A stretch of DNA of 64,000 nucleotides. Origin: Gammaproteobacteria bacterium. Its GTDB lineage: Bacteria; Pseudomonadota; Gammaproteobacteria; PIVX01. The position numbers and the translations under genes are program-made. The stretch spans positions 47,163 through 111,162 of the forward strand of contig PIVX01000004.1 of the NCBI GenBank assembly GCA_003353785.1, given 5' to 3'. This document shows, piece after piece, positions 3,170 through 59,029 of this stretch; positions within the stretch are counted from its first letter, which is position 1, and each line of letters opens with the position of its first letter. The notes beneath the pieces are model-generated. The model searched no databases, was not told where the DNA came from, and was given only the letters and a program-made list of their open reading frames with translations.

Positions 3170-6100
3170 TTACTTCCTTCTGAAGCTATTTATGTCTTTT
3201 ACATCACTTATTTCTACATTACTTATTTCTGATTTTATATCATTATAATTTGTACCACGATAGCTGATCTCTTTAGGATCTAAATTGGAAGTTGATAATT
3301 TCTCAAAAAAGGTTATGGCTTTTGTTTTATTGGAAGGCCAATTAAGGTAGGTAGCGTTACTATTTTTACCAAATCTATGATAGCCTGCTACTTTAGAAAA
3401 AATGGCCTTTTTCCAAACTGCATTTTTTTGTTCTTTTGACAGAGAATTTCCATATTTTTCAACTAATGCAACTGTTTCTTTAATGAATGCTAATTTAGTA
3501 TCTTGGTTATTCATATTGTTCCATTTTAATTTATCATAATGTTTTTGATCTGATATATTTATTAATATTTTTAGATAGTTTATCTTTTGGGGATTATCTA
3601 AATCATTGTCATTATTAAGAGCAGCAAGTATAGTGTTTTTATATTCAGATAATGAACTCATTTCCTTTATATGGATCTGTTTAATGATATTGAGGTGTTT
3701 TTGGGCAATTATTTTGTTGTTTCCTTCCATATGTTGTATTTGAAACTTCATATAAGCACAATATTCTTTACCATTAGCTTGAAGTAAAGATGTAAAGTCT
3801 TTGTTTTGTATTAATTTGTTGAATTGTTTTTCTGTCCGAGCACCAAGGATTTTTTCTACAATATCTTTAGTAGATAAATTAAATAAGGATTCATCAGATA
3901 TATGATGTTTAGCAACACGATTGGTTGTGATAGGAATATGACGGTTTGTGTGTATGTCTTGCGGTTGGCTAGACCCAAGTATATCATCATCGATAATGTC
4001 CTTGACAGCACTGTGAATACTAGGGCTTTCTGTTGTTTGAAGAGTTTCTTCTATTATATCATCATCGGCAATGTCATTTATATCAATGGTGATATTGGTG
4101 TTTTCTGTTTCTTGAAAAATTTCTTCAATAGGATCTTTAAGATGAATTTCAGGTTTTAACTTGCTTGGATCTTGACGATTATTAGTTTCTGCTACTAAAA
4201 AAATACTTTTACTTTTATTAGGCTCAGGTGGTAGTGCATCTTTATTAAAGCACAATGTATTATCATTGGGAATTTCAGAAGTATCTTTGAGCATTGTACC
4301 AAGTTCGTTAATAAAGAAGTCACGAAGCTGCTTATTACCAAAGTTGATAGATAACTTACCATCATTAGATTGATAGGTACCAAATCCGTTTATGCTTGGA
4401 TCTATATAAAATACAGTAGAATTTTCTGGAATAGTAGACATAGGTATATGTATATTAAGATTTTTGGCGGCCAAAAGTAATCTATCTTTGAATAGATCTC
4501 TATTTTTTTTGCTACCAAATCTTAATGCTACTCTTCTATCATCTTTTCCGTCTAGTATGTCTGGTTTAGCTGAATATATAATGATAGTTTGACTGGTATT
4601 TATTTGCGGAATAATTTTTTCAATAGATTCTTTAGTGGGAGCTTTAAGCTCTAAATTATGTTTCTGTTGGAGATTATGATCTGTTAATGTTGTGACAATA
4701 TTTTTCTGTCGATTAGGGTAATGGGGTAGTACATTGGTATGGAAATACAGATTATTATTAGTATTTGGAATATCAGAATGCTGTTTGACTTCCGAGCCGA
4801 GTTCGTTAATAAAGAAATCACGAAGTTGATTATTACCAAAAGCAATTGCTAATTGGCCATTGGAAGATACATAGGTGCCAGGTTCATTTGACTCCCCGCT
4901 CGGTTCAAAATAAAGTGTGTCAAGGTTTTCATAATGAAAAGTTAGCCTTATATTCACGCCAAGCTCACTTGCTTTTTTATGAAACTGCTTCATAAAATTC
5001 TCTCTCTCTTCTTTATTATCAAATTTTAATGCCACTTTTCTAGGGTATGTATTGGCTGAATAAATAGTGACGGATTTATTAGTTCTTTTTTTTGATTTAA
5101 CTTGCTGTTGAATATTATCGGGTTTGGGATATACCTTTTGGATAGTATTTACAGTACTTTGTAAGTTGTTATGTCCAGTGGAATTCTTGATCCTATTTGG
5201 ATCGTTATATGCCCCGGATATTTGGGCGCTGCCGATAAATGCCGTTGATGTAGCAACTATATCTTCCTCCATAGCATAATCTCCTGATTTATAATATTCG
5301 CCAATATCGTTTAATCCTAATACTGCGTCCATATCGCTTGGGTTTACAACAGCACATACATAGTCTGCTTGGGCTAAATTAATAGCTAAAAATTTTGAAT
5401 CCTTTAGATGTATATTGACAGGACAATCAATTTTTTTTTGATGTCTTGCTAGAACTTCTTTACATTTAGAAAAATGCTTTGGTCTAGGATTATAAAATAT
5501 ACCATCAAATTTACCTTCATACTCTTTTTTTTCTAGTAATTCAAATAATGTGTCGAAATATATTTCGGCTACAGTATTTGGATCAGTACCAGCAAATGCC
5601 CCCAATCCTATTGGAGGAATAGAAATATATTTACATCCCTGGGAGATGGAAGCTTCTAAAATGTTTTCCCACATATTGGAAATACACATTCTTGCTAATC
5701 CTGATTGGATTAATTGTTTTTCATTTATAGATTTCCCTGAGTAAGCAAAATTAATCCCAGGGGCTGAAATAACAACACAAGGGGTTTTACCATCTAAATT
5801 TTCATTTCTTACTTTATTGCGTGCTTCTTGGCCATGTAGATGTTCTTCAACGAGGAAATGAACTTGCTGAGAATGGCATATACTTGAACTTATAAGCATT
5901 ATTGGCATTTGCGCTATAGTGTTAAAGTGATCTTGATCTTTGAAACCTAAATCTTTCCATGAATTACGCCAATTTTCTAATTGTCCTGACTGTTGCAAAA
6001 TTTGATATAATGATCTAGGATCTTGATGCCTTATTGCCAAGGCTTTTAGATTGTGTTGTAGTTTTAAGAAAGCGGCTTTAGGTAAAACATTAGGATTAAC

Positions 6101-6436
6101 AATAAGCTTTGAGGAATTAGCTAAATCTTGTAGGGTACTTAAAGATATAGAAGGACTACCCTTTCCAAGTTCTGGACAGCTATTTATTTGTATTTTCTTA
6201 TTTTTTTGTTCACTTAGTTTTGTTTCTAATGTGGTTAATTTTGAATTTTCCCAACCTTTTTTAGGGGATAATTGTTGAATTACTTCTTTTGCTAAATACC
6301 CTTGATTCTTTACAGTATGATAGTTATTGTACATATCATAATATGAGCCTATTTTCTGTCCAGATGGTCCAACAAAATTGGAGAATGTACCTGTCTTATT
6401 TAGTATATGGCTTATTTTTGTTAATAGGTCTCTCAT
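3170..6436 (-). CDS. large (1088 aa) hypothetical protein with two internal ~120-aa tandem repeats; candidate secreted effector
   Basis: Long uninterrupted ORF with no signal peptide. It has duplicated blocks (..VALKFDNKEERENF..GNNQLRDFFINELG.. and ..VALRFGSKKNRDLF..GNKQLRDFFINELG..), acidic D/E/I-rich linkers, and a Glu/Asp-containing C-terminus ..SEISNVEISDVKDINSFRRK. Confidence 0.85.
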   Translation of the reverse strand: MRDLLTKISHILNKTGTFSNFVGPSGQKIGSYYDMYNNYHTVKNQGYLAKEVIQQLSPKKGWENSKLTTLETKLSEQKNKKIQINSCPELGKGSPSISLSTLQDLANSSKLIVNPNVLPKAAFLKLQHNLKALAIRHQDPRSLYQILQQSGQLENWRNSWKDLGFKDQDHFNTIAQMPIMLISSSICHSQQVHFLVEEHLHGQEARNKVRNENLDGKTPCVVISAPGINFAYSGKSINEKQLIQSGLARMCISNMWENILEASISQGCKYISIPPIGLGAFAGTDPNTVAEIYFDTLFELLEKKEYEGKFDGIFYNPRPKHFSKCKEVLARHQKKIDCPVNIHLKDSKFLAINLAQADYVCAVVNPSDMDAVLGLNDIGEYYKSGDYAMEEDIVATSTAFIGSAQISGAYNDPNRIKNSTGHNNLQSTVNTIQKVYPKPDNIQQQVKSKKRTNKSVTIYSANTYPRKVALKFDNKEERENFMKQFHKKASELGVNIRLTFHYENLDTLYFEPSGESNEPGTYVSSNGQLAIAFGNNQLRDFFINELGSEVKQHSDIPNTNNNLYFHTNVLPHYPNRQKNIVTTLTDHNLQQKHNLELKAPTKESIEKIIPQINTSQTIIIYSAKPDILDGKDDRRVALRFGSKKNRDLFKDRLLLAAKNLNIHIPMSTIPENSTVFYIDPSINGFGTYQSNDGKLSINFGNKQLRDFFINELGTMLKDTSEIPNDNTLCFNKDALPPEPNKSKSIFLVAETNNRQDPSKLKPEIHLKDPIEEIFQETENTNITIDINDIADDDIIEETLQTTESPSIHSAVKDIIDDDILGSSQPQDIHTNRHIPITTNRVAKHHISDESLFNLSTKDIVEKILGARTEKQFNKLIQNKDFTSLLQANGKEYCAYMKFQIQHMEGNNKIIAQKHLNIIKQIHIKEMSSLSEYKNTILAALNNDNDLDNPQKINYLKILINISDQKHYDKLKWNNMNNQDTKLAFIKETVALVEKYGNSLSKEQKNAVWKKAIFSKVAGYHRFGKNSNATYLNWPSNKTKAITFFEKLSTSNLDPKEISYRGTNYNDIKSEISNVEISDVKDINSFRRK
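4217..5074 (-). repeat. two tandem coding repeats (~4712-5074 and ~4217-4588) inside the 1088-aa ORF
   Basis: Protein residues ~455-575 and ~617-740 align. Shared strings are IYSA, RRVALRF/RKVALKF, GTY.S.(N/D)G(Q/K)L(A/S)I.FGN(N/K)QLRDFFINELG and IPN.N. Confidence 0.85.
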
Positions 6437-6662
6437 TTTAAAAATATGGATAAGTTAAAAAAATTTTAAGCTTTATAATAAAATGTAGCATTATTAGATT
6501 CTTAGTCAAATCATTACTCCAAAAAGCAGTTCTTTATACGTATTTGCTGGGTATTTAAAAGTGATACTAGATAATTTGTTGAGGAACTCGGTTTTGTACT
6601 GCTTGAACTTTAATTCTAATGTTCTATGATGTACACTAAAATTTAGTGTGTTTAGGTATAAT

Positions 6663-7214
6663 ATGAACAAAAATAACTTGATCTGGATTGATTTAGAAAT
6701 GACTGGACTAGAGCCTAGTTCCGATCGGATTATAGAGATAGCGACTATAGTTACCAATTATGAGTTAGATGTAGTTGCAGAAGGTCCATCGTTTGCTATA
6801 TATCAGCCTCAAGAAATATTAACAAATATGGATGGATGGAATACTTTGCATCATACTGGATCAGGGCTCGTTGATAGAGTAAAAGCTAGCGATATTTCTG
6901 TAGGAATTGCTGAGAAACAAACTTTAGAATTTTTAGAGCAATATGTTATAAAAGGGAAGTCTCCAATGTGTGGTAATTCAATTTGTCAGGATAGACGTTT
7001 CCTAGTAAATTATATGCCTACTCTAGAGCAATTTTTTCATTATCGTCATCTTGATGTTAGTACAATAAAGATTTTGGCTAACACATGGTTTCCTGATATT
7101 GCAAAAGGTATTGAGAAGAAATCTCAGCATTTAGCTCTATATGATGTTAGGGACTCAATTGAGGAATTAAAGTACTATAGAAAGTATATATTTCGAAAGC
7201 AAGATGACAAATAA
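6663..7214 (+). CDS. orn: oligoribonuclease
   Basis: [18 protein letters not shown]... is a DEDDh exonuclease N-terminus typical of Orn. The ATG at 6663 is preferred over the upstream GTG at 6648 in the ORF track. Confidence 0.92.
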
Positions 7215-26920: not shown

Positions 26921-28339
26921 ATGAAGCTTTCAAAAATAGTATTAAAGATAGTCTTTATGTCAGTTACTCTGATTACATGCAACAGTATTTTTGCTAATAC
27001 TGATATGATGTTTCAAGAGGTTCTAGATCGAAACGCGAATCCTTATATAGCAAAAGGGGATCACGATAATCGTATTTTTTGGTCAGGTGAACTACTAGGT
27101 ATTGTAGGGCTAAGAACTGCAGTTACTAGAGATGGAGCAGATAAACATCCTACTGGAACAGATATTACTTTACCTAGAGCAAATCTCTATATGGATGCTG
27201 TAGTTAATGATTGGGCAATGGCTCATTTGGCTTTGTCTTTTCATGGTTTATCAGTAGGCACGGACGTAGAGGGTTTTAGAGATAAAAATACTTTTGATGA
27301 AACTCAAGGGAATGGAATGTACACTAGAGCTGGTATCTTTGCCGCTTTTGATGGACTTACTTATCGACCTTATCGTCTAGTAGATGAAGCCTATGTGACT
27401 CTTGGTAATTTACATCGTCACCCGGCATATTTTAGAATGGGGCTTGGTAGAGTACCTTTTGGTTTATATGATAGAAATCAAATTTTATTAAATTGGACAA
27501 CTCTGTTTACTGAAACTCAAGCTATGTTTGCTCAATTTGGTATTATGGATGCATCAGGGTTTTTCGGTGCAGTATACGCATTTAGAGGTTTATCGCAGTT
27601 AGATGATATTGTGCGTGTTAAAGACTCTAATGGTGATGCACAGAGTGATGGAGTAAGAGATGGTTATCCGCATATTAATAATGGCGGTATTTCTCTTGGC
27701 TATTGTATGAATCACGGGCATACAGGTATTAAAGTTGCGGTAGACTGGATGTATAATATTATAGGTGGAGTTAATGTCTTTAGAACTATGGCGTTAGGTT
27801 CCAAGGTGAGTTCTGAAAGTGGTGAAGTAGCTAAAGTGTATTTTAAAAAGATAATGGGTATACATTTGGGAGTAAAAGGCCACTATAATCAATTTGATTT
27901 TAGAACCAACTTCATGATGGCCATGAATAAATTCAATAAAAATGAAGCGATACTAGCTGAGAAGCAACCGATGGTTTGGTCAATTGGAAGTGGAATACAT
28001 TTTAGGATGGGTTATCGACCTTCACGCTTTGGTATAGGATTCCAAATGACTAACAATCTGAAAAATGCAGCTATTGATAAGAGTGCAGCACAACTAACAG
28101 TTGCGAACGCTAAAGGAGCTGGTTGGTTGAAGGGTATTATCAATCAGTGGAGGGTGCATTTTGATTGGACTACAGAAATATTCAAAAATGTTACTGCCGG
28201 TGTTCATTATGCCTTTGAAGAGCCATACAAGGATACTTTGAAGAAAACAGCAACGGATATTTCTAATCCTAACAAAGAAACAATAAGACCTGATAAAGTA
28301 CATACAGCTTTCATCAGCTTAAGGACTAAGATAGCGTAG
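26921..28339 (+). CDS. putative porin-type outer-membrane protein (paralog of 29201-30550)
   Basis: 472 aa with a signal peptide. Shares blocks with the second copy: NDWAMAHLALSF / NEWAMAFFEISY and VTLGNLHRHPAYF..VPFG / ITLGNLNRFPLYV..VPFG. Family name not verifiable here. Confidence 0.7.
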   Translation: MKLSKIVLKIVFMSVTLITCNSIFANTDMMFQEVLDRNANPYIAKGDHDNRIFWSGELLGIVGLRTAVTRDGADKHPTGTDITLPRANLYMDAVVNDWAMAHLALSFHGLSVGTDVEGFRDKNTFDETQGNGMYTRAGIFAAFDGLTYRPYRLVDEAYVTLGNLHRHPAYFRMGLGRVPFGLYDRNQILLNWTTLFTETQAMFAQFGIMDASGFFGAVYAFRGLSQLDDIVRVKDSNGDAQSDGVRDGYPHINNGGISLGYCMNHGHTGIKVAVDWMYNIIGGVNVFRTMALGSKVSSESGEVAKVYFKKIMGIHLGVKGHYNQFDFRTNFMMAMNKFNKNEAILAEKQPMVWSIGSGIHFRMGYRPSRFGIGFQMTNNLKNAAIDKSAAQLTVANAKGAGWLKGIINQWRVHFDWTTEIFKNVTAGVHYAFEEPYKDTLKKTATDISNPNKETIRPDKVHTAFISLRTKIA

Positions 28340-39680: not shown

Positions 39681-39901
39681 ATTAATGACGATCGATGGTT
39701 TACGGTGTTGTTACTAAAATATCAGCTATCAAAATCCATATTTTATCAACATGTTATTACCTTGGCGGCTGGTTTTTAGATATTAATATCTCTGAAATAT
39801 ATACAAATATATGTGTTTGAATTAGATAGTATTTAATTAATATATTGCCAAAAAGTGTTTTTTATGGTATATTATGCCTAATAAATAAACAAATGTTCAT
39901 T

Positions 39902-42118
39902 ATGCAATATTCAAATCACTCACTACTCAAGAAATTTGTTCTTACTTTTTCCAATATCGTACTACTATTTGCTTATATAGCTAGTGTTGAATCTTCTGAG
40001 CTATATTTACCTAAACTTGAAATTAGCTTGAAAGGTGGTAACAAGCGTTCTATTGTAAGGCCAGGTGTAGTATTACCAATATTACAGACTAGAGATACTC
40101 TGACCTATGTAAATCTTATTTTTATGGGAGATAATAACCAAGCTCTTGAAGGTAATTTTGGGATCGGTTATAGAAGAATAGTAAATGATAAACAACTTTT
40201 TGGTATTTTTGGACATTATGATATTCGTAAGTCTCCATATGGTAATAAATATCATCAAAGAACTATAGGATTAGAATGGTTTGTCGGATTGATAGAGTTA
40301 AGAGGGAACATCTATCTGCCATATAATGAGAAAAATTCTATTGCTAGTAGCAAGAAACTCAAAGCAAAAGTTTATAATCATAGGGTAAGAATTGATTCTG
40401 GTAAGTTAACGCGTTCAGAAAAACCTTTAGCTGGATTTGATGCAGAATTTGGCTCTGCCATTCCGGGAAGAAATAATATTTCAGCGCATATTGCTTATTA
40501 TAGGTTTGGACAGAATTGCCAAGGGGTGCGTGGACGTGCTGCACTTCAATTAAATAAAGTACTTACTGTGGATTCTGAGGTTAGTTATGATCCATTAAGA
40601 AAAATATCGTATTTCTTGGGGTGTAAGTTAAGTTGGGAATTTGGCAGTAGAAAGGAAGCTAACCCATTAACTTATTTACAAAAGAAAATGACGATTAATC
40701 CTGTAAGAGATATTGATATTGTCATAAATGATCAGATATTAGATTTTAGTCCTGAACATACCTTCAATGGAAGCGTAACAGAAGAGTTTGTAATTGAGCA
40801 TGATGGGGAATATTACGTGCATAAAAAAGGTAATTTAGTTCAGATTACTGTTGATCAAGCACTTGATTATGTAAAGAAACGCTCTAAGGCATTGGTGGTG
40901 ACTAATGGTAAGGGTGAATTTAAATTACTTAGAACTTCTAAATGCTCAGACAATAATAACTATAAGAACGAGAAAGCATCTTTACGTAACTCTACTGGAA
41001 CATTTTCTAAGATCAAAGCGATTAATGATAAAGATTTTGCTGACATTATGTCTGATGGTGGAGACAGTATACGCTTTTTGCCTGAAGAGAAAGAACGGGT
41101 TAATTCTTTGACGTTGTCTCAAAGCTCAAAAATAGAAATAATCGAAGATCAAGAAGGGGTGGAAACCTTTGCTAGTAATGGTGGCTCTAATAATATGCAG
41201 TGGTCTACCTTTTTTCAGGGGTTAAAAAAATTATTGAGCGAACAACAAAAAGCGTCCGACACAAGAGTGCAAAATGCTATAAATGCGATGAATGGAGTTA
41301 AATCAAAGCCAAATAATAATAAGAAAGAAGATACCAAAACCTCTGGATTTAGAGCAAGTAGAGCTATTGGTATAATCAAAGATGAACAAAGTGATGGGTT
41401 TACGGTTGTTGCTAATACTAATAGATATCAACCGCAGCAACAGTATGTACAGCCAACACAGAATACTCAAAACTATCAACAGCCACAACAGAAATATTCT
41501 CCTAGTAATAATGCAAGTAAGGAGCCTGTTAAAGTTGAAAAACTTAATGGTAAGCCGCTTGTTAGTAACAATAAACCTAAACCTAAGAAGAAGGCACTTC
41601 CAAAGCAGATGAAAATTGGAGGAAATAAGGTAATAAAAAATACGTTCACTATAGGACAGATGACAGCAAGACAAGAAGAAATGAAAAAACTTAAAGCTAA
41701 ACCTAAATTTGATTTTTCAAAGATGGGTGGGATATTTGCTGGTGCAAAACGGAAGAAGAGCAAAGTAAAACAAAAGTCTATTGCAGAATTGCAAAAAAGT
41801 GCCAATAGTAGTGGGAATTCAAAAGGAACTGATCCACGTAAGACAACAGCGTCTACTTATAAGCATCCTATGGTAGGTGGTTTACTTATTCCAACTAGTG
41901 GAAAAGATGCAACAATCTGTTACCATGGTAAACCTGTGATCGTTAAAAAACAGCAATATAAGAATAATGTTCATAGTCTAAATAGGGGGGGGTACTGGTT
42001 CCTAAGAGCTGTGACTTATCATAAGGATACTGGTGGATTTTGGAAATTTAACGGTGATGATAACTCCGTTCTTGAATATACTGATAAGAGCTTCATAAAG
42101 GATGCCAAAAAATGCTGA
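39902..42118 (+). CDS. inverse autotransporter (intimin/invasin-type beta-domain) with non-canonical passenger
   Basis: Signal sequence MQYSNHSLLKKFVLTFSNIVLLFAYIASVES. Beta-domain blocks VLPILQT..NFGIGYRR..LFGIFGHYD..TIGLEWF..LRGNIYLPY..PLAGFDAEFG..IPG. The passenger lacks Ig-like repeats and has a Q/P/K-rich tract. Start could also be 39893 or 39845. Confidence 0.8.
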   Translation: MQYSNHSLLKKFVLTFSNIVLLFAYIASVESSELYLPKLEISLKGGNKRSIVRPGVVLPILQTRDTLTYVNLIFMGDNNQALEGNFGIGYRRIVNDKQLFGIFGHYDIRKSPYGNKYHQRTIGLEWFVGLIELRGNIYLPYNEKNSIASSKKLKAKVYNHRVRIDSGKLTRSEKPLAGFDAEFGSAIPGRNNISAHIAYYRFGQNCQGVRGRAALQLNKVLTVDSEVSYDPLRKISYFLGCKLSWEFGSRKEANPLTYLQKKMTINPVRDIDIVINDQILDFSPEHTFNGSVTEEFVIEHDGEYYVHKKGNLVQITVDQALDYVKKRSKALVVTNGKGEFKLLRTSKCSDNNNYKNEKASLRNSTGTFSKIKAINDKDFADIMSDGGDSIRFLPEEKERVNSLTLSQSSKIEIIEDQEGVETFASNGGSNNMQWSTFFQGLKKLLSEQQKASDTRVQNAINAMNGVKSKPNNNKKEDTKTSGFRASRAIGIIKDEQSDGFTVVANTNRYQPQQQYVQPTQNTQNYQQPQQKYSPSNNASKEPVKVEKLNGKPLVSNNKPKPKKKALPKQMKIGGNKVIKNTFTIGQMTARQEEMKKLKAKPKFDFSKMGGIFAGAKRKKSKVKQKSIAELQKSANSSGNSKGTDPRKTTASTYKHPMVGGLLIPTSGKDATICYHGKPVIVKKQQYKNNVHSLNRGGYWFLRAVTYHKDTGGFWKFNGDDNSVLEYTDKSFIKDAKKC

Positions 42119-46713: not shown

Positions 46714-47388
46714 CTAACTAATTTTTAAAACGATCCCAATATCTAAGGAATGAAAATCAAAAGAAGACTCAAAGAAATTGTTGTTAGATATTTGTCCTAT
46801 TTTTTGTGAAAAGGTACTATGGTATCTATACTCTAAGCTTAGATCCCACATATGATTTAAAATTAAATGAAATCCTACTATAGCGTTATAGACAAAAACA
46901 TTATAAGATCTACTAAATCTCTGCGCTACTGGTTCTGTAGATAGATGGGAATAATAATTTAACTTCATGTGGCTGTAGCCAGCACCAACACCAAAAATAA
47001 ATTTAACAGGTCCATCTAATGTGAAGTCATAGTAACTATTTAAAATAAAATCTTTTAAATTACCAGTTGTGCTTTTATCATTGGTAAACTTTTTTACCGG
47101 GCTATTGTTTATTCGAGTATTAACTTCCTCAATGCGTGTTTTAGCAAAATGGCTAGTAAAAGCTACACGAAATTGATCAAATTTGTATCCTAGGCTTCCT
47201 CCAAAATTGTACGTTGGCTTAGAATGAAGCTCTAATAACCGTTGGCTTTTACTATCTTCAGTCTTCCCCAAAACAGTTAGTCCACCTTGTCCTTGAACAT
47301 ACCAGCCATATAAATAATTAAAGGAGAATGATGTAGCTGAATACATAAGAAAATTAATAAAACTAAATAAAATAAATAATTTCTTCAT
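46714..47388 (-). CDS. small (8-stranded type) outer-membrane beta-barrel protein
   Basis: 224 aa with a signal peptide, alternating hydrophobic strands and repeated G.G.GY blocks. Distant paralog of 54170-54823. Confidence 0.65.
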   Translation of the reverse strand: MKKLFILFSFINFLMYSATSFSFNYLYGWYVQGQGGLTVLGKTEDSKSQRLLELHSKPTYNFGGSLGYKFDQFRVAFTSHFAKTRIEEVNTRINNSPVKKFTNDKSTTGNLKDFILNSYYDFTLDGPVKFIFGVGAGYSHMKLNYYSHLSTEPVAQRFSRSYNVFVYNAIVGFHLILNHMWDLSLEYRYHSTFSQKIGQISNNNFFESSFDFHSLDIGIVLKIS

Positions 47389-48470: not shown

Positions 48471-50501
48471 TTAATATTGTTTTTTCATATATACATCCAT
48501 ATTATCATCATATATTCTGATGTTGTCAAAAAAAGATTCTTGCCCTAAAGATGCTTCAAACGAGATTAGCTTATTTTTATTTTGGAGCTGTCCAACAACT
48601 TGGTAGTTGTCGCCCCATTTTGCCTTATAATGTACCATATTTCTATCGGGAGTTATTATATTCTTTAACAAATTAAATTCTTTTGTTAAACCTGTATTAA
48701 ATGAATGTTGGGGAAGAAAATCTTCCCAAGATACTCCTATTATATAGGATAATGGTATCTTAGGAAATAACCAGTAGAAGATAGCTGCATAAAAAGAATA
48801 TCCTTCCATGCGATAAAAAGAAAAAATATTATTTTTCTTTGAAAAAAATAATTTACAATTATCTGTTTGCAAGTTATTTTCTCCATTGAGACTAATACTT
48901 GGAGTGAAAGTAACAGTGAAAGACTTGTCAGTTTTTTTATCTAGGCAAAAATAACTTAAATTATGGCCTAGGACAAAATTAAATGATTCAGTTACTGAGG
49001 TTTCTCTAGGAATTACAAAAATTTCTTGTTTTTTGCGTAACTTGTTACTGTAAAAAAAATAGTTATTCGAATTTATATAAGGATAAAAACTAAAAGGAAT
49101 AGTATTTGAAAATAGATATAGAGAAGTTTGCATTTGGATATGAACGTGTGGAACTGGTGAATATCCAGAATTACCACATAGGCCTATTAATTCATTTTCA
49201 CAAACTATCTGTCCTGGGGCAAGAGTTATAGAATTTTGAGCCAAATGTCCTATGGTTATAAAATAACCATAACTGTTTTCAATAACTACATAATTACCAA
49301 ATTTATTTTCATAGTCCAAATTACCAATCTCATTATCAGGTAAATATGATACTAACTGTATTATTTTACCATTACACGGACTAAGAATTTCTTTACGGAA
49401 ACAATGATAGTCTTCTAGTATATATCCATCTCCAGTATGGGTTTTACCATGCCTTTCAACAACAAAGTCATATGCATATTGCCAAATTCCTTTATGAGTC
49501 CATTGATCATTAAAGCCTTGCCATACAACCCATGTTCCTTTAAAAGGAAAGTTAATACTAATGACATTAGAATCTGCTTTATTTGTGTTATGTAAGAAAG
49601 AATCTAAATTTAGTTCAGGGGTCTCTAAATTTATTTTTGGGATTAACCAGAAATTAAACTGTTTTAGTACATATAAAATACTTAATGAGGTGAAAACAAA
49701 AGGTAAAGTAAATATTGGGATATTGTATATTTTGTATAAGACTAATTCTGCGTTAAGAAACAAAACAGAAATACAAACGCCTAAAGATGCTATTATTACA
49801 CTACCTCTACTAGGAATTAAAAAAATACTTCCAAGATAAATGAAAACTAAAATATGATTAAAACCACCATATATATACCAAGATAGATAATTATTAAGTA
49901 ATAATGATATAAGCACACTTAGGTAATATCCTAAAAGACTAAAAATGAGTATAATTCTTGAGTGTAATAATAATAGTGCAGAGATTGCTATTCCTATGTA
50001 TAAATTTGGACAAAAAAAGATACTACTTAATGTAAGGAGAAAACCACTGATCCAATTAGCATGGTAATCGGTACTAAAACCAGTATAGTTATGAGAACAG
50101 AGCCACAATATTGTGCTTATCAAAGTGAAAGGAAGTGTAAGTGCTGGCAGATTAAAGTTATTATACAAAACATTTTCGATATTAAAGCTAACGATAAAGG
50201 TAAGTATCCCACAAATAACGGTTAATAAAACACTGGTAATGGATATAGGATAAATACTTCCAATGGTAAATCCTACCAGCAAGGAATTATAAGTATAACA
50301 CCCAAAAAATAAAAAATATCTATAGCAACTAATTGAAACTGCAAAATAATACGCTGAAAGCAGTGAAATAGAACCAAGAATAAATAATTTTGGGTAAAAT
50401 ATTAGTGTTGGTATGATTAATATTAGAATATTTTTATTTCTCAAAAAAATAATTTCTGAATAACTAGGAAATATTATTTTATTTATTAAGGTATATATCA
50501 T
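48471..50501 (-). CDS. fusion protein: urea-transporter (UT)-family membrane domain + M23 metallopeptidase domain + unassigned ~215-aa C-terminal domain
   Basis: UT-like internal duplication: YTYNSLLVGF...LPALTLPF and GGFNHILVF...IPIFTLPF. M23 motifs: WTHKG..YAYDF, GNYVVIEN..GHL and CGNSGYSPVPHVHIQ. ATGA overlap with the upstream decarboxylase gene. Confidence 0.8.
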   Translation of the reverse strand: MIYTLINKIIFPSYSEIIFLRNKNILILIIPTLIFYPKLFILGSISLLSAYYFAVSISCYRYFLFFGCYTYNSLLVGFTIGSIYPISITSVLLTVICGILTFIVSFNIENVLYNNFNLPALTLPFTLISTILWLCSHNYTGFSTDYHANWISGFLLTLSSIFFCPNLYIGIAISALLLLHSRIILIFSLLGYYLSVLISLLLNNYLSWYIYGGFNHILVFIYLGSIFLIPSRGSVIIASLGVCISVLFLNAELVLYKIYNIPIFTLPFVFTSLSILYVLKQFNFWLIPKINLETPELNLDSFLHNTNKADSNVISINFPFKGTWVVWQGFNDQWTHKGIWQYAYDFVVERHGKTHTGDGYILEDYHCFRKEILSPCNGKIIQLVSYLPDNEIGNLDYENKFGNYVVIENSYGYFITIGHLAQNSITLAPGQIVCENELIGLCGNSGYSPVPHVHIQMQTSLYLFSNTIPFSFYPYINSNNYFFYSNKLRKKQEIFVIPRETSVTESFNFVLGHNLSYFCLDKKTDKSFTVTFTPSISLNGENNLQTDNCKLFFSKKNNIFSFYRMEGYSFYAAIFYWLFPKIPLSYIIGVSWEDFLPQHSFNTGLTKEFNLLKNIITPDRNMVHYKAKWGDNYQVVGQLQNKNKLISFEASLGQESFFDNIRIYDDNMDVYMKKQY

Positions 50502-51856
50502 ATAGCAAGATGTTCAGGAATACTCTCTCGTCGAATTAGATCAGTAAGATCTTCCTTTCCTCTAATAAGATGTGGGTTTCGTTGAGTATCTATCATAACT
50601 ATTGCTGGTCTATACTCAATAAATTGCATCCATTGAGTAACATTATATGCTCCAACTGGAGATAAGATTATTTGGTCGTTTGTATTTAAGGGAGGTAATA
50701 ATATTCCACTATCTACAACATCTATGTTCATGCATAAAGGGCCGTACAGTACAGACATTTCCATATGTTCTTGGAATTGTCTATTTATCTCAATGTTAAA
50801 TTTATACCAAGTTGATGTGTATAATAAATTGATTCCTGCATCTATCACGTATCCCTTAGTTCCATCCGGCAATCTTTTAGTTGACTTAACTGTACTAATT
50901 AAAAAGCCTGCATCATCTATTAATGCTCTTCCATTTTCTAAAAAAATTTTGAGTCTTGGTTCACTTAACTTATTATCTTCTAAAGCCGAAATAATAGTTT
51001 TTGCAAAAACTTCCATATTAGGTACGATAATATTCTGATGATAATAACTATCTCTAAGTTTACTATTAGATGGTAATCCTCCACCAAGATCAATATACTT
51101 TATTTTGGCATATTTTTTTTCTTCTAGCATTTGTGAAAAGATGGTCATTTTTTTGACCTGGATCTTATATAAATTTGGGTCGAGAACAAAAGTTCCAATA
51201 TGGCAATGTAGCCCTACTAAATTTAATTTACTATGGAGTTTAATTTTTTTTACCGCAGCAAGAGATTCCCCTGATTCTAGATTAAAACCAAATCTAGACC
51301 ATAAAGGATATGTACCAGTATCTAAGTTAAGACGAATACCTACATCGATAATCTTATTTAGTTTATTGGCAATATGTGATATTTCTTCAATTTCTTCGAA
51401 GTTATCTATATGGATCTTAGCACCTTCTCGTATTGCTTTTACCAGGGATTGGTGAGATTTATTAGGGCCATTAAAGATGATTTTGTTTCCAGGAATTCCT
51501 ATATATCTTGCTTTATCGTATTCCATTTCAGAGACAACCTCTGCTAAGAATCCTTCTTGATAGAAAATAGAACAAATCGCATCAAGGTAGTTAGTTTTAT
51601 ATGACCATGCCATTTGAATATCAAAAATTGATGTCGAAAAGTACTTTTTATATTTTTGGATTTTTTTGCGAATAGTATCTTCGGAAAAAACAAATAATGG
51701 AGAACCAAACTTGTTAATTAATTCATTAATATCTACAGAATCTATATGAGTTCTTGTTTTAATAGATTGGTTGCTGTGCCATTCATTCCTATTGATACAT
51801 CCGGATTTAAGTTTAGTAATAATAGGTTTTTCATAAGAAAGAATTGGATCGTCCAT
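50498..51856 (-). CDS. fold-type-III PLP-dependent decarboxylase (Orn/DAP/Arg decarboxylase family)
   Basis: PLFVFSEDTI, the PLP-Lys context AWSYKTN, HCHIGT, DLGGGLP, ENGRALID, YGPLCMNIDV and PVGAYN. Confidence 0.85.
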   Translation of the reverse strand: MDDPILSYEKPIITKLKSGCINRNEWHSNQSIKTRTHIDSVDINELINKFGSPLFVFSEDTIRKKIQKYKKYFSTSIFDIQMAWSYKTNYLDAICSIFYQEGFLAEVVSEMEYDKARYIGIPGNKIIFNGPNKSHQSLVKAIREGAKIHIDNFEEIEEISHIANKLNKIIDVGIRLNLDTGTYPLWSRFGFNLESGESLAAVKKIKLHSKLNLVGLHCHIGTFVLDPNLYKIQVKKMTIFSQMLEEKKYAKIKYIDLGGGLPSNSKLRDSYYHQNIIVPNMEVFAKTIISALEDNKLSEPRLKIFLENGRALIDDAGFLISTVKSTKRLPDGTKGYVIDAGINLLYTSTWYKFNIEINRQFQEHMEMSVLYGPLCMNIDVVDSGILLPPLNTNDQIILSPVGAYNVTQWMQFIEYRPAIVMIDTQRNPHLIRGKEDLTDLIRRESIPEHLAI

Positions 51857-52936
51857 TTATGCCTCTTTATTTTCTGAATATAGAGATAATTCACCTTGTG
51901 TAAAAATATCATCTAAATCACTAATATTATAAATTGATTCTTCTATATGTCTAATAAATAGTTTCCCTGCAACATAACTAATTGGTTCATTTTTAGCATT
52001 ATATCCTAAGGCATTACAGACAATAATTTCAGGTAAATTCAATCCTAGCTGGGTAGAAAAATATATCCATGAAGGAAATCTAGGGTTAACTTCAATTAAA
52101 TAAATTTGTTCCCCAGAAGCTATACATTCTATTTCAAAAGGTCCTCGCCAATTAGTATACTCAACAAATTTTCTGGCAATATTATCTAACTTAGTATTAT
52201 GTATCGAAACACCTGTCCAAATTTTTCCAATCCCCGTAGTAGTAATTTTTCGCACACATGCTGAACCTAATATCTTACCTTCCCCATTTCCAATACCAAT
52301 TATATTTATTTCGTCTCCCACTATTTCATCTTGTATTATTACTGGATAACCATAGTTATAAATAATTTTATTTAGGTAAATTGTAACCTCTTGTAAAGAG
52401 GTTGTTTTATAACAACAGTAGCTATTGCCCTTTATTACTAGAGGGGGTGGTATTTTTTTTATTGCTGAATGTAATTGGTCGTAGGAAAAGATGATTTCTT
52501 GATTAGGGATTTTTGTATCAACTATTTTAGATAAATTTTCCAATTTTATTTTATTACATAATTCTAGCTGCGTCTCTGTAGGAGAAAATAAATAAATTCC
52601 TAATTCTTTTAATTGCTGATGATACCTAGCATAAAATAATAACTCACTATCTAAATTAGGTATAATAACGTTTAGATCAAACTTATTTTTTATATAAGAT
52701 AATCTTGCTAAAGTGTGCTTAGGATCTGATGAGGGATAAGGCATTAAACAGATTTTATCAAAGAAATTATTTAAAAAAACACCAGATTCCATTCCATCAT
52801 ATGCCAAGCCAATTATTCTATGTGGGTAGGCAAAAGAGCTTCGTAAACTTTTGGCAACGCCTACTCCAGGAGCTGGATTCTCACAAGAATTTATTCCAGT
52901 GATCCCAACACAGATATTCTCTCTATTAAAAGTCAT
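51857..52936 (-). CDS. ATP-grasp carboxylate-amine ligase
   Basis: 359 aa. PLVIKG, VIIQDEIVGDE and LIEVNPRFPSW are ATP-grasp blocks. There is no gap to either neighbouring gene. Confidence 0.8.
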   Translation of the reverse strand: MTFNRENICVGITGINSCENPAPGVGVAKSLRSSFAYPHRIIGLAYDGMESGVFLNNFFDKICLMPYPSSDPKHTLARLSYIKNKFDLNVIIPNLDSELLFYARYHQQLKELGIYLFSPTETQLELCNKIKLENLSKIVDTKIPNQEIIFSYDQLHSAIKKIPPPLVIKGNSYCCYKTTSLQEVTIYLNKIIYNYGYPVIIQDEIVGDEINIIGIGNGEGKILGSACVRKITTTGIGKIWTGVSIHNTKLDNIARKFVEYTNWRGPFEIECIASGEQIYLIEVNPRFPSWIYFSTQLGLNLPEIIVCNALGYNAKNEPISYVAGKLFIRHIEESIYNISDLDDIFTQGELSLYSENKEA

Positions 52937-53182
52937 CTATAATATTCCTAAAAATCTCATATTATTTATAAAATCTGTTAAATCAGCATCTATGGTTTTT
53001 TTATCTAAGGAAAATTGTTCAGCAATGTTATTGGCAATGTCGTTAATGGAATATTGTTTATTTATCATGTTAATTATCTCTATTCCTATACAGTTAGTAA
53101 AATAACTGCTACCTGTATGTTTATCGAAAATAAATCCACTATTACTGAGAGAAAGTTTAGACAAGTTTGTGTAGTTATCCAT
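52937..53182 (-). CDS. PqqD-family small protein (RiPP-recognition-element-like)
   Basis: 81 aa. GFIFDKHTGSSYFTNCIGIEIINMINKQYSINDIANNIAEQFSLDKKTIDADLTDFINNMRFLGIL follows the PqqD pattern (..g..y.lN..g..i...l....t..ei...l...y.......D...F...L...g.l). Confidence 0.7.
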   Translation of the reverse strand: MDNYTNLSKLSLSNSGFIFDKHTGSSYFTNCIGIEIINMINKQYSINDIANNIAEQFSLDKKTIDADLTDFINNMRFLGIL

Positions 53183-53262: not shown

Positions 53263-53991
53263 ATGAATAAAATAAAAAAGTTAGTGCTTTTAATTTTTTC
53301 TATACTCTATAGCTTTAATATTTATGCATTTAACTGGGATAAGACGTATATTCAAAGCAGCTATGGGGGAGATTATAAAATAACTACTAAAAAATCTAGA
53401 GGTACTTTTACTATATCTGATTCTAGTAGTTGGAAGTTTGGAGAGAACTATTTCTTTATTGAAGCTGCAGATTTTGTTCATGATGAACTTTTATTGTATG
53501 GGGAATTTGATCCTTCCCTAAGTTTAGGAAAAATATTTAATACAAAAGTTGGAGCAGGCCCAATTGTAGACACATTAATAACGACCAGGTTTTATGCTGA
53601 TGAGTTGAATGCTAGAGAAACTGATTATGGGCTCATGTGGTACTGGGATTTTCATAGAATTTTTCAGTATGTTTCCACCAAAATTGTATATCGCAAAGTT
53701 TTAAATGTGCCAGGGAATGCTGTTGGCCTTCAACTTAATTCTCAAATTAATATTCATAAATACATTTTTTCTACGATTTTTGTTGATTGGACACCAAAGA
53801 GTCAATCGTTAGCACATAACAGAGGGAAAAATCTCTTCGGTAGAATAGAACTGTTTGGTGATGTTGGGAGTATCATTTATAGACCTTATCATATATATCT
53901 TGGTTGTGGCTTTTCTTATTGGAGAAATAAACTAGGTGTACAAGGAACTCATGAGCGGGTTTTATATGGAGTAATCAGATTTTATATATAG
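53263..53991 (+). CDS. Tsx/OmpK-like outer-membrane channel
   Basis: Signal peptide, then W.KTYIQSSYGGDYK..T.S.SSSWKFGENYFFIE..........LYGEFDPSLSLGKIF. Terminal aromatic-rich strand ..VLYGVIRFYI. The assignment comes from recalled family pattern. Confidence 0.55.
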   Translation: MNKIKKLVLLIFSILYSFNIYAFNWDKTYIQSSYGGDYKITTKKSRGTFTISDSSSWKFGENYFFIEAADFVHDELLLYGEFDPSLSLGKIFNTKVGAGPIVDTLITTRFYADELNARETDYGLMWYWDFHRIFQYVSTKIVYRKVLNVPGNAVGLQLNSQINIHKYIFSTIFVDWTPKSQSLAHNRGKNLFGRIELFGDVGSIIYRPYHIYLGCGFSYWRNKLGVQGTHERVLYGVIRFYI

Positions 53992-54169: not shown

Positions 54170-54823
54170 TTAGGCAACTATGAATTTAAAGCCTATGTTA
54201 ATATTATAAGGAGATATGAACACATGTTTGTAATCTTTATTACCAAATTTTGTCAATGTTACTTCTGTAGCTCCTAAAAATTTGTATTCTAAAAATATAC
54301 TCATAACATTATTCATGTGGTATTGTGCCCCAGCTAGAAATTGAAAACCAAATGCATTAGTAGATTCATTAGTTGTTTGAGCTGTATTATTTATTTTATT
54401 ATTGAAATTGCTTTTAAAGTGAGCCCAACCGATACCAATACCTAGATAAGGTGTTATATTTGGATCTATTTCAACGTCATAAATTCCATTTAACATAACA
54501 TTTATCATCGATCCCTCTTTATTGTTAGATTTGTCTGATAGAGTTTTATTTTTTTGGGTAAATTTAGCTTCAGCTACTTTTGCGCGTAAATAGTTGAACT
54601 CTAATTCAGTTCTAAACATATCTAGTTTTTGTCCTACACTACCACCAATATTAAAAGATTTGTCGTATTCTAAATCTATTTTTGTTCCTGTTTGATTTTG
54701 GTCTTGAGAATTGATCCCACTAAATCCGACCTTTACAGTTACGTAAGTGTTATCCATACCGGCACTTGCAAAAGCACTGAAACCTAACATAGCTAATACC
54801 AATATACGGGATCTATTTTTCAT
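54170..54823 (-). CDS. small (8-stranded type) outer-membrane beta-barrel protein
   Basis: 217 aa with signal peptide MKNRSRILVLAMLGFSAFASA, G.G.G blocks, and terminal ..NINIGFKFIVA. Confidence 0.65.
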   Translation of the reverse strand: MKNRSRILVLAMLGFSAFASAGMDNTYVTVKVGFSGINSQDQNQTGTKIDLEYDKSFNIGGSVGQKLDMFRTELEFNYLRAKVAEAKFTQKNKTLSDKSNNKEGSMINVMLNGIYDVEIDPNITPYLGIGIGWAHFKSNFNNKINNTAQTTNESTNAFGFQFLAGAQYHMNNVMSIFLEYKFLGATEVTLTKFGNKDYKHVFISPYNINIGFKFIVA

Positions 54824-58953: not shown

Positions 58954-59029
58954 TGGCTCCCCGGGACGGGCTCGAACCGCCGACCTAATGATTAACAGTC
59001 ACCCGCTCTACCGACTGAGCTACCGGGGA
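58954..59029 (-). tRNA. tRNA-Asn (GTT), CCA encoded
   Basis: The reverse complement TCCCCGGTAGCTCAGTCGGTAGAGCGGGTGACTGTTAATCATTAGGTCGGCGGTTCGAGCCCGTCCCGGGGAGCCA folds as a cloverleaf: 7-bp acceptor stem, D-loop AGTCGGTA, anticodon loop CTGTTAA, T-loop TTCGAGC. Confidence 0.95.

Follow-up and report, generated by a model that had tools for sequence, protein, structure and literature searches.

The 64,000-nucleotide stretch of contig PIVX01000004.1 analysed here (referred to below as the window) carries, at 48471-53182 on its minus strand, four contiguous open reading frames (ORFs). They encode a PqqD-like RiPP recognition element (RRE; RiPP, peptide that is made on the ribosome and modified after translation), an ATP-grasp ligase, a pyridoxal phosphate (PLP)-dependent decarboxylase of the alanine racemase (AR) fold, and a membrane protein that fuses a urea transporter (UT) fold to an M23 peptidase. 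Our preferred reading, put forward tentatively and with slightly less than an even chance of being right, is that this cassette forms a self-contained four-gene machine, extended to six genes in its complete version, that would build and release one fixed small metabolite, and that the RRE, which is of the type found in lasso B1 proteins, would dock on the decarboxylase's own N-terminal tail. The design is unusual, since the RRE is without a precursor and finds its best candidate ligand on a partner enzyme, and since an M23 domain, normally extracytoplasmic, is placed in the cytoplasm and joined to a urea-channel fold. Four rival explanations, each weighed below together with the evidence that bears on it, are less consistent with the observations.

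A conserved four-gene cassette

In the direction of transcription, the cassette starts with the RRE (81 aa; 52937..53182, like all four genes on the minus strand), which matches Pfam PqqD (PF05402) at E 2e-7 and exceeds the gathering cut-off. It is followed by the ATP-grasp ligase (359 aa; 51857..52936), for which ATP-grasp_3 (PF02655) is above and PF15632 slightly under the cut-off, by the decarboxylase (452 aa; 50498..51856), with matches to Orn_Arg_deC_N (PF02784, E 1e-31) and Orn_DAP_Arg_deC (PF00278, E 7e-9), and by the UT-M23 membrane protein (676 aa; 48471..50501), which combines UT (residues 9-278, E 1e-40) with Peptidase_M23 (E 3e-9). An initial annotation of the window had described four packed minus-strand ORFs with these domain identities, and in both respects it holds: all four lie where they had been placed, and Pfam supports PqqD, ATP-grasp, the N and C domains of Orn/DAP/Arg decarboxylases, UT and Peptidase_M23. 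The five motifs that it quoted (LIEVNPRFPSW, AWSYKTN, HCHIGT, GGGLP and GPLCMNID) are all found in the translations. The genes abut with TAG/ATG at 52936/52937 and overlap by ATGA at 50498-50501, as had been described; the junction at 51856/51857 reads TAA/ATG and not TAG/ATG, a trivial slip.

A pattern scan with one genome per species returned at least 596 relatives, of which the best 80 were examined; together with four loci known earlier they make up the 84 loci surveyed here. These best 80 of at least 596 fall, going by their record titles, in about 20 phylum-level groups, and the gene order PqqD, ligase, decarboxylase, UT-M23 is identical throughout. Gene counts obtained by tblastn with the window's proteins over the 84 loci gave a match for the decarboxylase in 82, for PqqD in 80, for UT in 72 and for M23 in 69. 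Two of the four loci where PqqD was not matched have divergent copies directly upstream, the remaining absences (PqqD, UT/M23) appear to fall mostly at loci whose end comes shortly after the neighbouring gene, and a PqqD-like gene lies directly 5' of the ligase at every locus having upstream sequence. The same order is present in Persephonella and Francisella, and seeding from the UT-M23 protein led to the same cassette in three of three genomes (Thermosulfuriphilus, Nitratiruptor and Thiomargarita). Carriers include Aquificota, Campylobacterota, Planctomycetota, Cyanobacteriota, Bacteroidota, Francisella and giant sulfur bacteria, and culturable hosts are available in Francisella salina, Mucilaginibacter gossypiicola, Hydrogenothermus marinus and Thermosulfuriphilus ammonigenes. 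The four families, initially taken as one unit from a single locus, are thus co-conserved neighbours in the same order over unrelated phyla, and their grouping is therefore more than chance. The flanks consist of unrelated housekeeping genes that differ at each locus, with no other recurrent family, and in the minimal cassettes of the window and Francisella the flanking intergenic DNA amounts to merely 80-120 bp.

Irregularities were noted at a few loci. In the complete genome of Thermosulfuriphilus ammonigenes (CP048877; L085, 6584-7622), the ATP-grasp gene is split into ORFs of 176 and 171 aa, which may reflect a frameshift, a pseudogene or an error of sequencing in an otherwise intact cassette. 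A contig of a metagenome-assembled genome (L008) contains an exact duplication of PqqD and the 5' end of the ligase (4709-5343 versus 5606-6885), most likely an assembly artefact. Nitratiruptor (AP023065; L086, 15218-16396) has a second, conventional M23 peptidase gene of the Csd3 type about 4 kb downstream of the cassette, which probably belongs to unrelated cell-shape machinery.

As for previous knowledge, the four proteins all stay below the curated cut-offs of the NCBIfam models, PADLOC gives no match for any of them, and nothing on the four-gene cassette was found in the searchable literature. RefSeq and UniProt name the Francisella orthologs "PqqD family protein", "ATP-grasp domain-containing protein", "alanine racemase" or "FslC", and "urea transporter". 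The initial impression that no characterised pathway has this composition is consistent with all of these sources. An anti-phage defence system was considered and rejected on the zero PADLOC matches, and a lead from NCBIfam to WgkC was likewise dropped, as WgkC belongs to the unrelated tryglysin radical-SAM RiPPs. The domain families are all known, and a ligase paired with an AR-fold decarboxylase has precedents in FigA/FigC and BtrJ/BtrK. What appears to be undescribed in the searched literature is the four-gene combination, the cytoplasmic M23-UT fusion, a new C-terminal domain, and a precursor-less RRE with a candidate protein-borne leader. With a cassette found in at least several hundred species under names that are generic or wrong throughout, this represents a sizeable blind spot in bacterial metabolism.

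Ligase and decarboxylase

The nearest PDB entry to the decarboxylase is the N-citrylornithine decarboxylase FigC/FslC (7KH2; 214 bits), followed by diaminopimelate decarboxylase (DAPDC) from M. jannaschii (MjDAPDC, 1TWI; 157 bits) and BtrK (7RU7; 76 bits). The AR-fold signature is complete, with the PLP lysine, stacking His, Gly loop, phosphate Arg and catalytic Cys all in place; catalytic residues K87 and H219 are present in 76 of 76 orthologs, and G258, R310 and C375 in 74 of the 74 aligned. The pocket is near-invariant over 74-76 orthologs (T347, W350, Y351, M376, N377, I378, T407, Q408, Q411, F412 and I413), which, for a family spread across phyla, argues for one fixed conjugate as substrate and speaks against a hypervariable peptide.

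The positions that determine specificity were compared using the published analysis of FigC (PMC7857480). T347 replaces the Arg of the DAPDC specificity helix (R343 in MjDAPDC) that binds the distal carboxylate of diaminopimelate (DAP). The catalytic Cys is followed by Met, as in FigC, and not by the acidic residue that binds the free amine in ornithine decarboxylase and DAPDC (PMC7857480). The Thr/Tyr of the specificity helix is also common to the decarboxylase and FigC. The citrate ligands H357, R387 and N389 of FigC correspond to I378, Q408 and M410, which are conserved among the orthologs. Based on these residues, we infer that the substrate is a single conserved conjugate with a free alpha-amino-acid end, and with a distal part that is acylated, largely neutral and not citrate. 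The FigC-like Cys-Met pair, together with the loss of the DAPDC and citrate residues, favours ligation followed by decarboxylation. This order had been proposed in the initial annotation, and it fits an enzyme that has Met after the catalytic Cys and resembles FigC, which acts on N-acylated ornithine. A separate gene for a precursor or carrier was not found at any surveyed locus.

The NCBIfam scores of the decarboxylase are 248 against a cut-off of 500 for FslC and 221 against 297.9 for lysA (TIGR01048). The ortholog in Francisella sciaenopsi (P0286) has the automatic UniProt name [quoted passage not shown] and the RefSeq name "alanine racemase". Because the substrate-binding residues are changed, both names are likely mis-annotations.

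The ligase has 219 homologs at 35-45% identity, and the family shares 45 invariant residues that include the ATP-grasp core E268, E270, E282, N284 and R286. A PDB search with a profile of 20 members gave as the nearest entry 2PN1 (E 5e-19), which is carbamoyl phosphate synthetase (CPS)-like and of a function that is not known, and further matches to CPS, pyruvate carboxylase, PurD, PylC and Ddl; no RimK, LysX, MdnC or microviridin ligase was matched at E 0.01. Similarly, NCBIfam contains no graspetide-maturase match for the ligase at E 0.1, and there is no precursor gene beside it. The NCBIfam CPS-like model scores 72 bits against a cut-off of 390, and we take the CPS-like label to reflect generic ATP-grasp similarity only. 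By its sequence, the 359-aa protein is a predicted carboxylate-amine ligase of an uncharacterised ATP-grasp family.

The CPS-like proteins are nonetheless the best matches of the ligase in both NCBIfam and the PDB, and with the UT fold and its pore motifs they might be taken to indicate urea or carbamoyl nitrogen metabolism. The UT domain would then move urea or a ureido compound, and the ligase and decarboxylase would act on a ureido amino acid, such as citrulline, which would become N-carbamoylputrescine; a ureido group could be accommodated by the decarboxylase pocket, which is neutral, polar and aromatic. Such a role is highly improbable. Apart from the generic nature of the label, genes for urease, amidolyase, ornithine transcarbamylase or the agmatine pathway are not linked to the cassette in the surveyed loci, and neither the RRE and the M23 domain nor the tetratricopeptide repeat (TPR) and ~284-aa accessory proteins described below would have a role.

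The recognition element and the decarboxylase tail

The assignment of the 81-aa protein as a PqqD/RRE, made in the initial annotation, is upheld by profile searches, and the relationship is closest to lasso B1 proteins: the family profile finds TfuB1 (6JX3) and TbiB1 (5V1U) at E of about 3e-11, and true PqqD at 3e-4 to 9e-3. According to a structural study from 2026, discrete lasso/LPP RREs recognise a [Y/W]xxPx[L/V/I/F/A] motif, where D70 of LppB forms a hydrogen bond to the leader Tyr, the kink at the Pro is held in place by N33, and F74 and M78 form the lining of the pockets; Asn/Asp leader contacts are common to many RREs of pyrroloquinoline quinone (PQQ) pathways (PMC13381572). After removal of an 18-residue tag offset from the LppB numbering, verified on V35, C39, F74 and M78, LppB residues N33, D70, F74 and M78 align with N30, D67, F71 and L75 in the window protein, of which N30 is conserved to at least 90% and D67 is invariant. 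Because the leader-contact residues are conserved, the RRE is suited to a YxxPxΦ ligand (Φ, hydrophobic), and judging from these contacts it is built to bind such a peptide.

A separate gene for such a peptide was not found. All-against-all clustering of ORFs of 15-100 aa from about 6 kb on each side, covering the 84 loci and the window, returned PqqD and shadow frames as the only conserved small ORFs, and there is no precursor-like small gene among the called genes of three later loci (Thermosulfuriphilus, Nitratiruptor and Thiomargarita). With flanks of 80-120 bp, the minimal cassettes leave no room for one. Individual candidates were rejected as well: a 66-aa ORF upstream in Thiomargarita is unrelated, and the extra DNA between PqqD and the ligase most likely stems from the assembly duplication at L008, whereas at L026 it consists of unrelated genes.

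These results bear directly on a classical RiPP pathway with a precursor encoded elsewhere, where the RRE would bind the leader, the ATP-grasp enzyme would append or cross-link, the decarboxylase would trim, M23 would remove the leader, and the membrane protein would serve in export or immunity. Some RiPP systems do have unlinked precursors. The RRE is genuine and has kept its leader-binding residues, and the presence of a protease together with an enzyme for ATP-dependent amide formation and a membrane exporter parallels lasso logic. We still consider this pathway unlikely. Besides the outcome of the small-ORF clustering and the short flanks, the cassette moves self-contained between unrelated contexts and would leave an unlinked precursor behind. 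The decarboxylase pocket, being invariant, suggests a single fixed substrate, and a urea-type pore would be far too narrow for a peptide.

A likely ligand is present within the cassette itself, in the N-terminal tail of the decarboxylase (residues 1-24; 51785..51856, minus strand). This segment is family-specific and does not exist in FigC, DAPDC or BtrK; the part homologous to FigC begins at residue 38, and the part homologous to BtrK/HpDAPDC begins with residue 24. It is conserved at the extreme N-terminus of the orthologs with the consensus M-K-K-x-Y-E-K-P-V-I-x-K-L-x-x-G-M-M-N-K-F-G, and in the window protein the stretch Y8-E-K-P11-I-I13 (51818..51835, minus strand), a candidate RRE-binding site, matches the published [Y/W]xxPxΦ motif of lasso/LPP leaders (PMC13381572, PMC10368454). 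The Tyr is found in 67 of 68 orthologs, and both the Pro at +3 and a hydrophobic residue at +5 in 68 of 68. Over all cassette proteins there are three conserved [YW]xxPxΦ sites, and the one in the tail is alone in lying outside a folded core.

The spacing of the tail is also lasso-like. Lasso leaders have Tyr at -17 relative to Gly at core position +1 (PMC10368454), and the tail follows the same scheme, Y(-17), P(-14), Φ(-12) and G/A(+1), with Gly or Ala at Y+17 in 64 of 68 orthologs. The preceding two residues are Lys (63 of 68) and Phe or Tyr (58 of 68), and G/A(+1) falls where the canonical fold begins. In the set of 62 paired loci, the sole tail with Phe for Tyr (L081) is paired with the sole RRE that has Phe for D67, a double change that would be the compensation predicted for a lost hydrogen bond from the Tyr hydroxyl group to Asp. 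Homology of the tail to PqqA was rejected, as a hidden Markov model of the tail scores PqqA no better than shuffled sequences, and the argument is thus kept at the level of the motif.

The tail could alternatively serve as a covalent scaffold, in analogy to the BtrI and LysW carriers. The RRE would then present it to the ATP-grasp enzyme for loading of an acidic or diamino acid on the Lys at Y+15 or on a new N-terminus, decarboxylation would take place on the tethered substrate, and M23 would release the product as an isopeptidase. A Lys at Y+15 is present in 63 of 68 orthologs, within the conserved N-K-F-G, and the FigC-like features of the pocket favour an acylated distal group. BtrJ/BtrK and LysX/LysW provide precedent for ATP-grasp and carrier chemistry, and BtrK is listed among AR-fold decarboxylases (PMC8503589). 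In Persephonella-type cassettes, a gamma-glutamyl cyclotransferase-like (GGACT) gene after the TPR gene (L001/L002, 12970-13314; L040, 11965-12306) recalls BtrG of butirosin biosynthesis, but this applies to 3 of 84 loci. Furthermore, the window protein has Arg at Y+15 and N-E in place of F-G, and the remaining conserved basic positions of the tail are K/R-interchangeable. We therefore regard tethering to the tail as improbable, somewhat more so than a remote precursor. The carrier logic that the initial annotation had borrowed from butirosin and LysW fares no better in its original form: there is no BtrI-like acyl carrier protein (ACP) and no LysW-like gene, LysX is unmatched at E 0.01, and BtrK is distant compared with FigC. 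PqqD itself was also rejected as a LysW-like carrier, since its C-terminus differs in length among the orthologs.

Membrane protein, proposed mechanism and related systems

The membrane protein is composed of a UT-fold channel domain (residues 9-278; 49668..50477), an M23 metallopeptidase domain of the LytM type (approximately residues 320-460; 49122..49544) and a β-rich C-terminal domain of about 196 aa (48474..49061), all on the minus strand. An AlphaFold2 (AF2) model of the 676-aa protein has a pLDDT of 85.9. Foldseek aligns the UT domain with dvUT (3K3F/3ME1) at a TM-score of about 0.8 and 16-20% sequence identity, and the pore motifs LPALTLPF and IPIFTLPF correspond to VPALTAPF and MPALTWPF in dvUT, such that both TxPF motifs are kept; the NCBIfam model urea_trans_yut scores 70 against a cut-off of 275. 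The C-terminal domain lies outside known families and folds. It has no Pfam or NCBIfam match, and when modelled alone by AF2 (pLDDT 86.3) it finds no PDB fold at E<1e-3, the best being LolA/FABP-like half-barrels at a TM-score of about 0.3. In a search of 1.84 billion representatives, the domain was found exclusively behind the M23 domain of UT-M23 proteins, and short matches look like fragments.

The fold of the M23 domain matches those of DipM, lysostaphin, ShyA and Csd1/2, and its closest relatives in sequence are the peptidoglycan DD-endopeptidases Csd1, Pgp3 and ShyA. Residues H336, D345, H419, H452 and H454 are invariant in 30 homologs, and H419 and the HxH motif (H452-x-H454) align with catalytic residues of solved M23 enzymes. 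As for the canonical HxxxD motif, the position four residues upstream of the invariant D345 is variable and the invariant H336 lies nine upstream; this N-terminal motif falls outside the phmmer alignment. The domain is likely, but not certainly, active.

Two accessory proteins, a TPR protein of about 200 aa and a protein of about 284 aa, are encoded in 49 and 37 of the 84 loci, respectively, often after the core genes. Neither has a homolog anywhere in the 64-kb window, and Francisella is also without both. The divergent 242-aa neighbour of the cassette and the small outer-membrane proteins nearby were considered as the missing ~284-aa protein and rejected for lack of profile similarity. The stand-alone TPR and ~284-aa proteins bear signal peptides. 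In P0196, the TPR domain is fused to the membrane protein with an Arg-rich stretch and a transmembrane helix between it and the C-terminal domain, and similar fusions recur; single chains of about 1080 aa with the order UT, M23, C-terminal domain, transmembrane helix and TPR are seen in P0196 and P0264, and in L014 and L026 from Planctomycetota. Because of these fusions and the signal peptides on the stand-alone TPR proteins, the predicted topology has the M23 and C-terminal domains in the cytoplasm, beside the ATP- and PLP-dependent enzymes, and the TPR domain in the periplasm; a periplasmic M23 is not compatible with this arrangement. The ~284-aa protein has an aromatic last residue and β-barrel-like patterns, and is probably an outer-membrane barrel. 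The full six-gene system would thus span the envelope.

The topology is also relevant to a possible function in cell-wall peptide metabolism, where M23 would cut a peptidoglycan-derived peptide, the decarboxylase and ligase would remodel or recycle a DAP stem peptide, and the TPR and ~284-aa proteins would provide the link to the envelope. The DD-endopeptidases as nearest M23 sequences, the membership of DAPDC in the decarboxylase family, and the secreted envelope nature of the accessory proteins are all compatible with this function. With the M23 domain on the cytoplasmic side, with Thr in place of the DAP-binding Arg and the lysA cut-off missed, we find it quite improbable; in addition, the surveyed loci show no linkage of the cassette to Mur, Mpl, Ldc or Amp genes, and no role in peptidoglycan metabolism is known for an RRE.

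In our preferred reading, that of a machine for one fixed metabolite, the ATP-grasp enzyme would join a carboxylate to an amine, where one of the partners retains a free alpha-amino-acid end. The FigC-like decarboxylase would then strip this alpha-carboxylate, leaving an amide with a terminal amine, such as an N-acyl-diamine or omega-aminoacyl amide with a distal part that is neutral rather than citrate-like. The RRE would serve no free precursor, and would instead bind YxxPxΦ of the decarboxylase tail and bring the enzyme to its partners. A further role of the RRE, in most orthologs, may be to place the tail such that it can be cut ahead of the conserved Gly at the lasso "+1" distance. Cleavage by M23 on the cytoplasmic face of the channel would serve either in product release or, in most lineages, in removal of the decarboxylase leader. 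The product would exit through the UT-like pore and, in the full versions, continue by way of the periplasmic TPR protein and the secreted ~284-aa probable outer-membrane barrel. The window would represent the minimal form, without these two proteins. A more specific proposal, which is possible but in which we have less confidence, is that the RRE has been repurposed for an enzyme-borne leader: it would deliver the decarboxylase to the channel-fused M23 domain, and thereby assemble, and in most lineages mature by proteolysis, a membrane-docked ligase-decarboxylase complex that makes a novel class of exported small amines or amides.

Several points weigh against this reading. The ATP-grasp enzyme is without informative relatives and its substrates are not readable from sequence, and the order of ligation and decarboxylation is deduced from pocket residues alone. 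The link between RRE and tail depends on a short motif and is statistically modest. Two other conserved [YW]xxPxΦ sites exist, in the AEWGYPVIVQ strand of the ATP-grasp enzyme and in a segment of the TIM barrel, both within folded cores, and the covariation between tail and RRE is a single event (L081). A tail profile does not lift PqqA above shuffles, and an ungapped position-specific scoring matrix of the tail is marginal, with p 0.01-0.03 for two PqqA sequences and no significance for a third PqqA and a lasso leader. The tail is recognised neither by Pfam, including the PqqA model that does recognise genuine PqqA sequences, nor by NCBIfam. The window tail keeps YEKPII, but has R-N-E at positions -2/-1/+1 instead of the usual K-F-G, and cleavage before Gly may not apply to this copy. 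With H336 five residues upstream of the canonical place for the HxxxD histidine, M23 activity is not certain, and the UT pore is narrow, which puts the passage of amides larger than urea in doubt.

As for the setting of the cassette in the window, its neighbours are the chromosomal housekeeping genes metG, uvrB, mutL, rnr and cydAB, and with a G+C content of about 31% over the whole window there is no compositional break at the cassette. The methionyl-tRNA synthetase has its best named relatives in Gammaproteobacteria, at only about 57% identity, and the host would appear to be a poorly sampled, AT-rich gammaproteobacterium. A 1088-aa protein (3170-6436, minus strand), in which the domain lpg1496_N of a Legionella effector family (PF20980) occurs twice (E 4e-23), hints at a Legionellales-like, intracellular organism. 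Around the cassette there are three small genes of the outer-membrane β-barrel type (46714-47388 and 54170-54823 on the minus strand, 53263-53991 on the plus strand), of which two match PF13505/Surface_Ag_2 and the third has a signal peptide and no Pfam match. ORFs of 757 aa (39845-42118) and 472 aa (26921-28339), both on the plus strand, have no Pfam match at E 1e-5, and a tRNA-Asn (GTT; 58954-59029, minus strand) is the sole RNA gene detected in the 64 kb. A scan for promoters and terminators was uninformative in this AT-rich DNA, where promoter-like sites are fewer than in shuffled sequence.

If the proposed mechanism is correct, the cassette would be a machine for biosynthesis and release that spans the envelope and has no described counterpart. 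If the link between RRE and tail holds, genome mining based on RREs must consider protein-borne leaders. Once identified, the product would establish a new family of natural products or physiological metabolites, and with it a novel function of UT-fold channels.

The chemistry proposed for the cassette is closest to that of FigA/FigC (FslA/FslC) and related pairs from siderophore pathways independent of non-ribosomal peptide synthetases (NIS), such as SbnH, where a ligase first forms an amide on a diamino acid and a DAPDC-like enzyme then decarboxylates. Decarboxylases of the FigC type do not take the free amino acid, and FigC is the closest solved relative of the cassette enzyme, with which it shares Cys-Met and the Thr/Tyr of the specificity helix. 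Unlike FigA, the cassette ligase is an ATP-grasp enzyme and not an IucA/IucC NIS synthetase, of which there is none in the window or the surveyed loci, and in place of a major facilitator superfamily (MFS) exporter the cassette has the RRE, the UT-M23 protein and the N-terminal tail of the decarboxylase. Butirosin BtrI/BtrJ/BtrK and LysW/LysX are similar in that an ATP-grasp enzyme is paired with an AR-fold decarboxylase on a tethered amino acid, but no ACP, LysW-like gene or other recurrent small gene accompanies the cassette in the surveyed loci. BtrK belongs to the same superfamily as the cassette decarboxylase, at 76 bits compared with 214 for FigC.

With the lasso machinery (B1, B2, C and D), the cassette has in common the RRE contacts of the B1 type, a YxxPxΦ motif 17 residues ahead of a Gly, and the combination of a protease with ATP-dependent amide formation and a membrane component for export. 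In contrast to lasso systems, there is no separate precursor, and the motif is fused to an enzyme of 450 aa. The protease is M23 and not a transglutaminase-type B2, and the ligase is ATP-grasp and not an Asn-synthetase-like C cyclase, neither of which was found by Pfam in the cassette or its neighbours. The membrane part is a passive UT-type channel instead of an ATP-binding cassette (ABC) transporter, and a PLP decarboxylase is added. The small cassette protein is a member of Pfam PqqD, as in the PqqA/PqqD/PqqE system of PQQ biosynthesis, but genes for PqqA, PqqB, PqqC and PqqE were found at no surveyed locus. A parallel in logic only is seen in C39 peptidase-ABC exporters, where a cytoplasmic peptidase fused to the export component couples cleavage with release. 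The cassette differs from these in having M23, a urea-channel fold that is passive where the exporters have an ABC pump, and an extra domain without a known fold match. The UT domain, finally, has the fold of the urea channels dvUT, UT-A and UT-B and both of their TxPF motifs, but unlike these channels it is fused to M23 and a new domain, and is always found within the present biosynthetic cassette.

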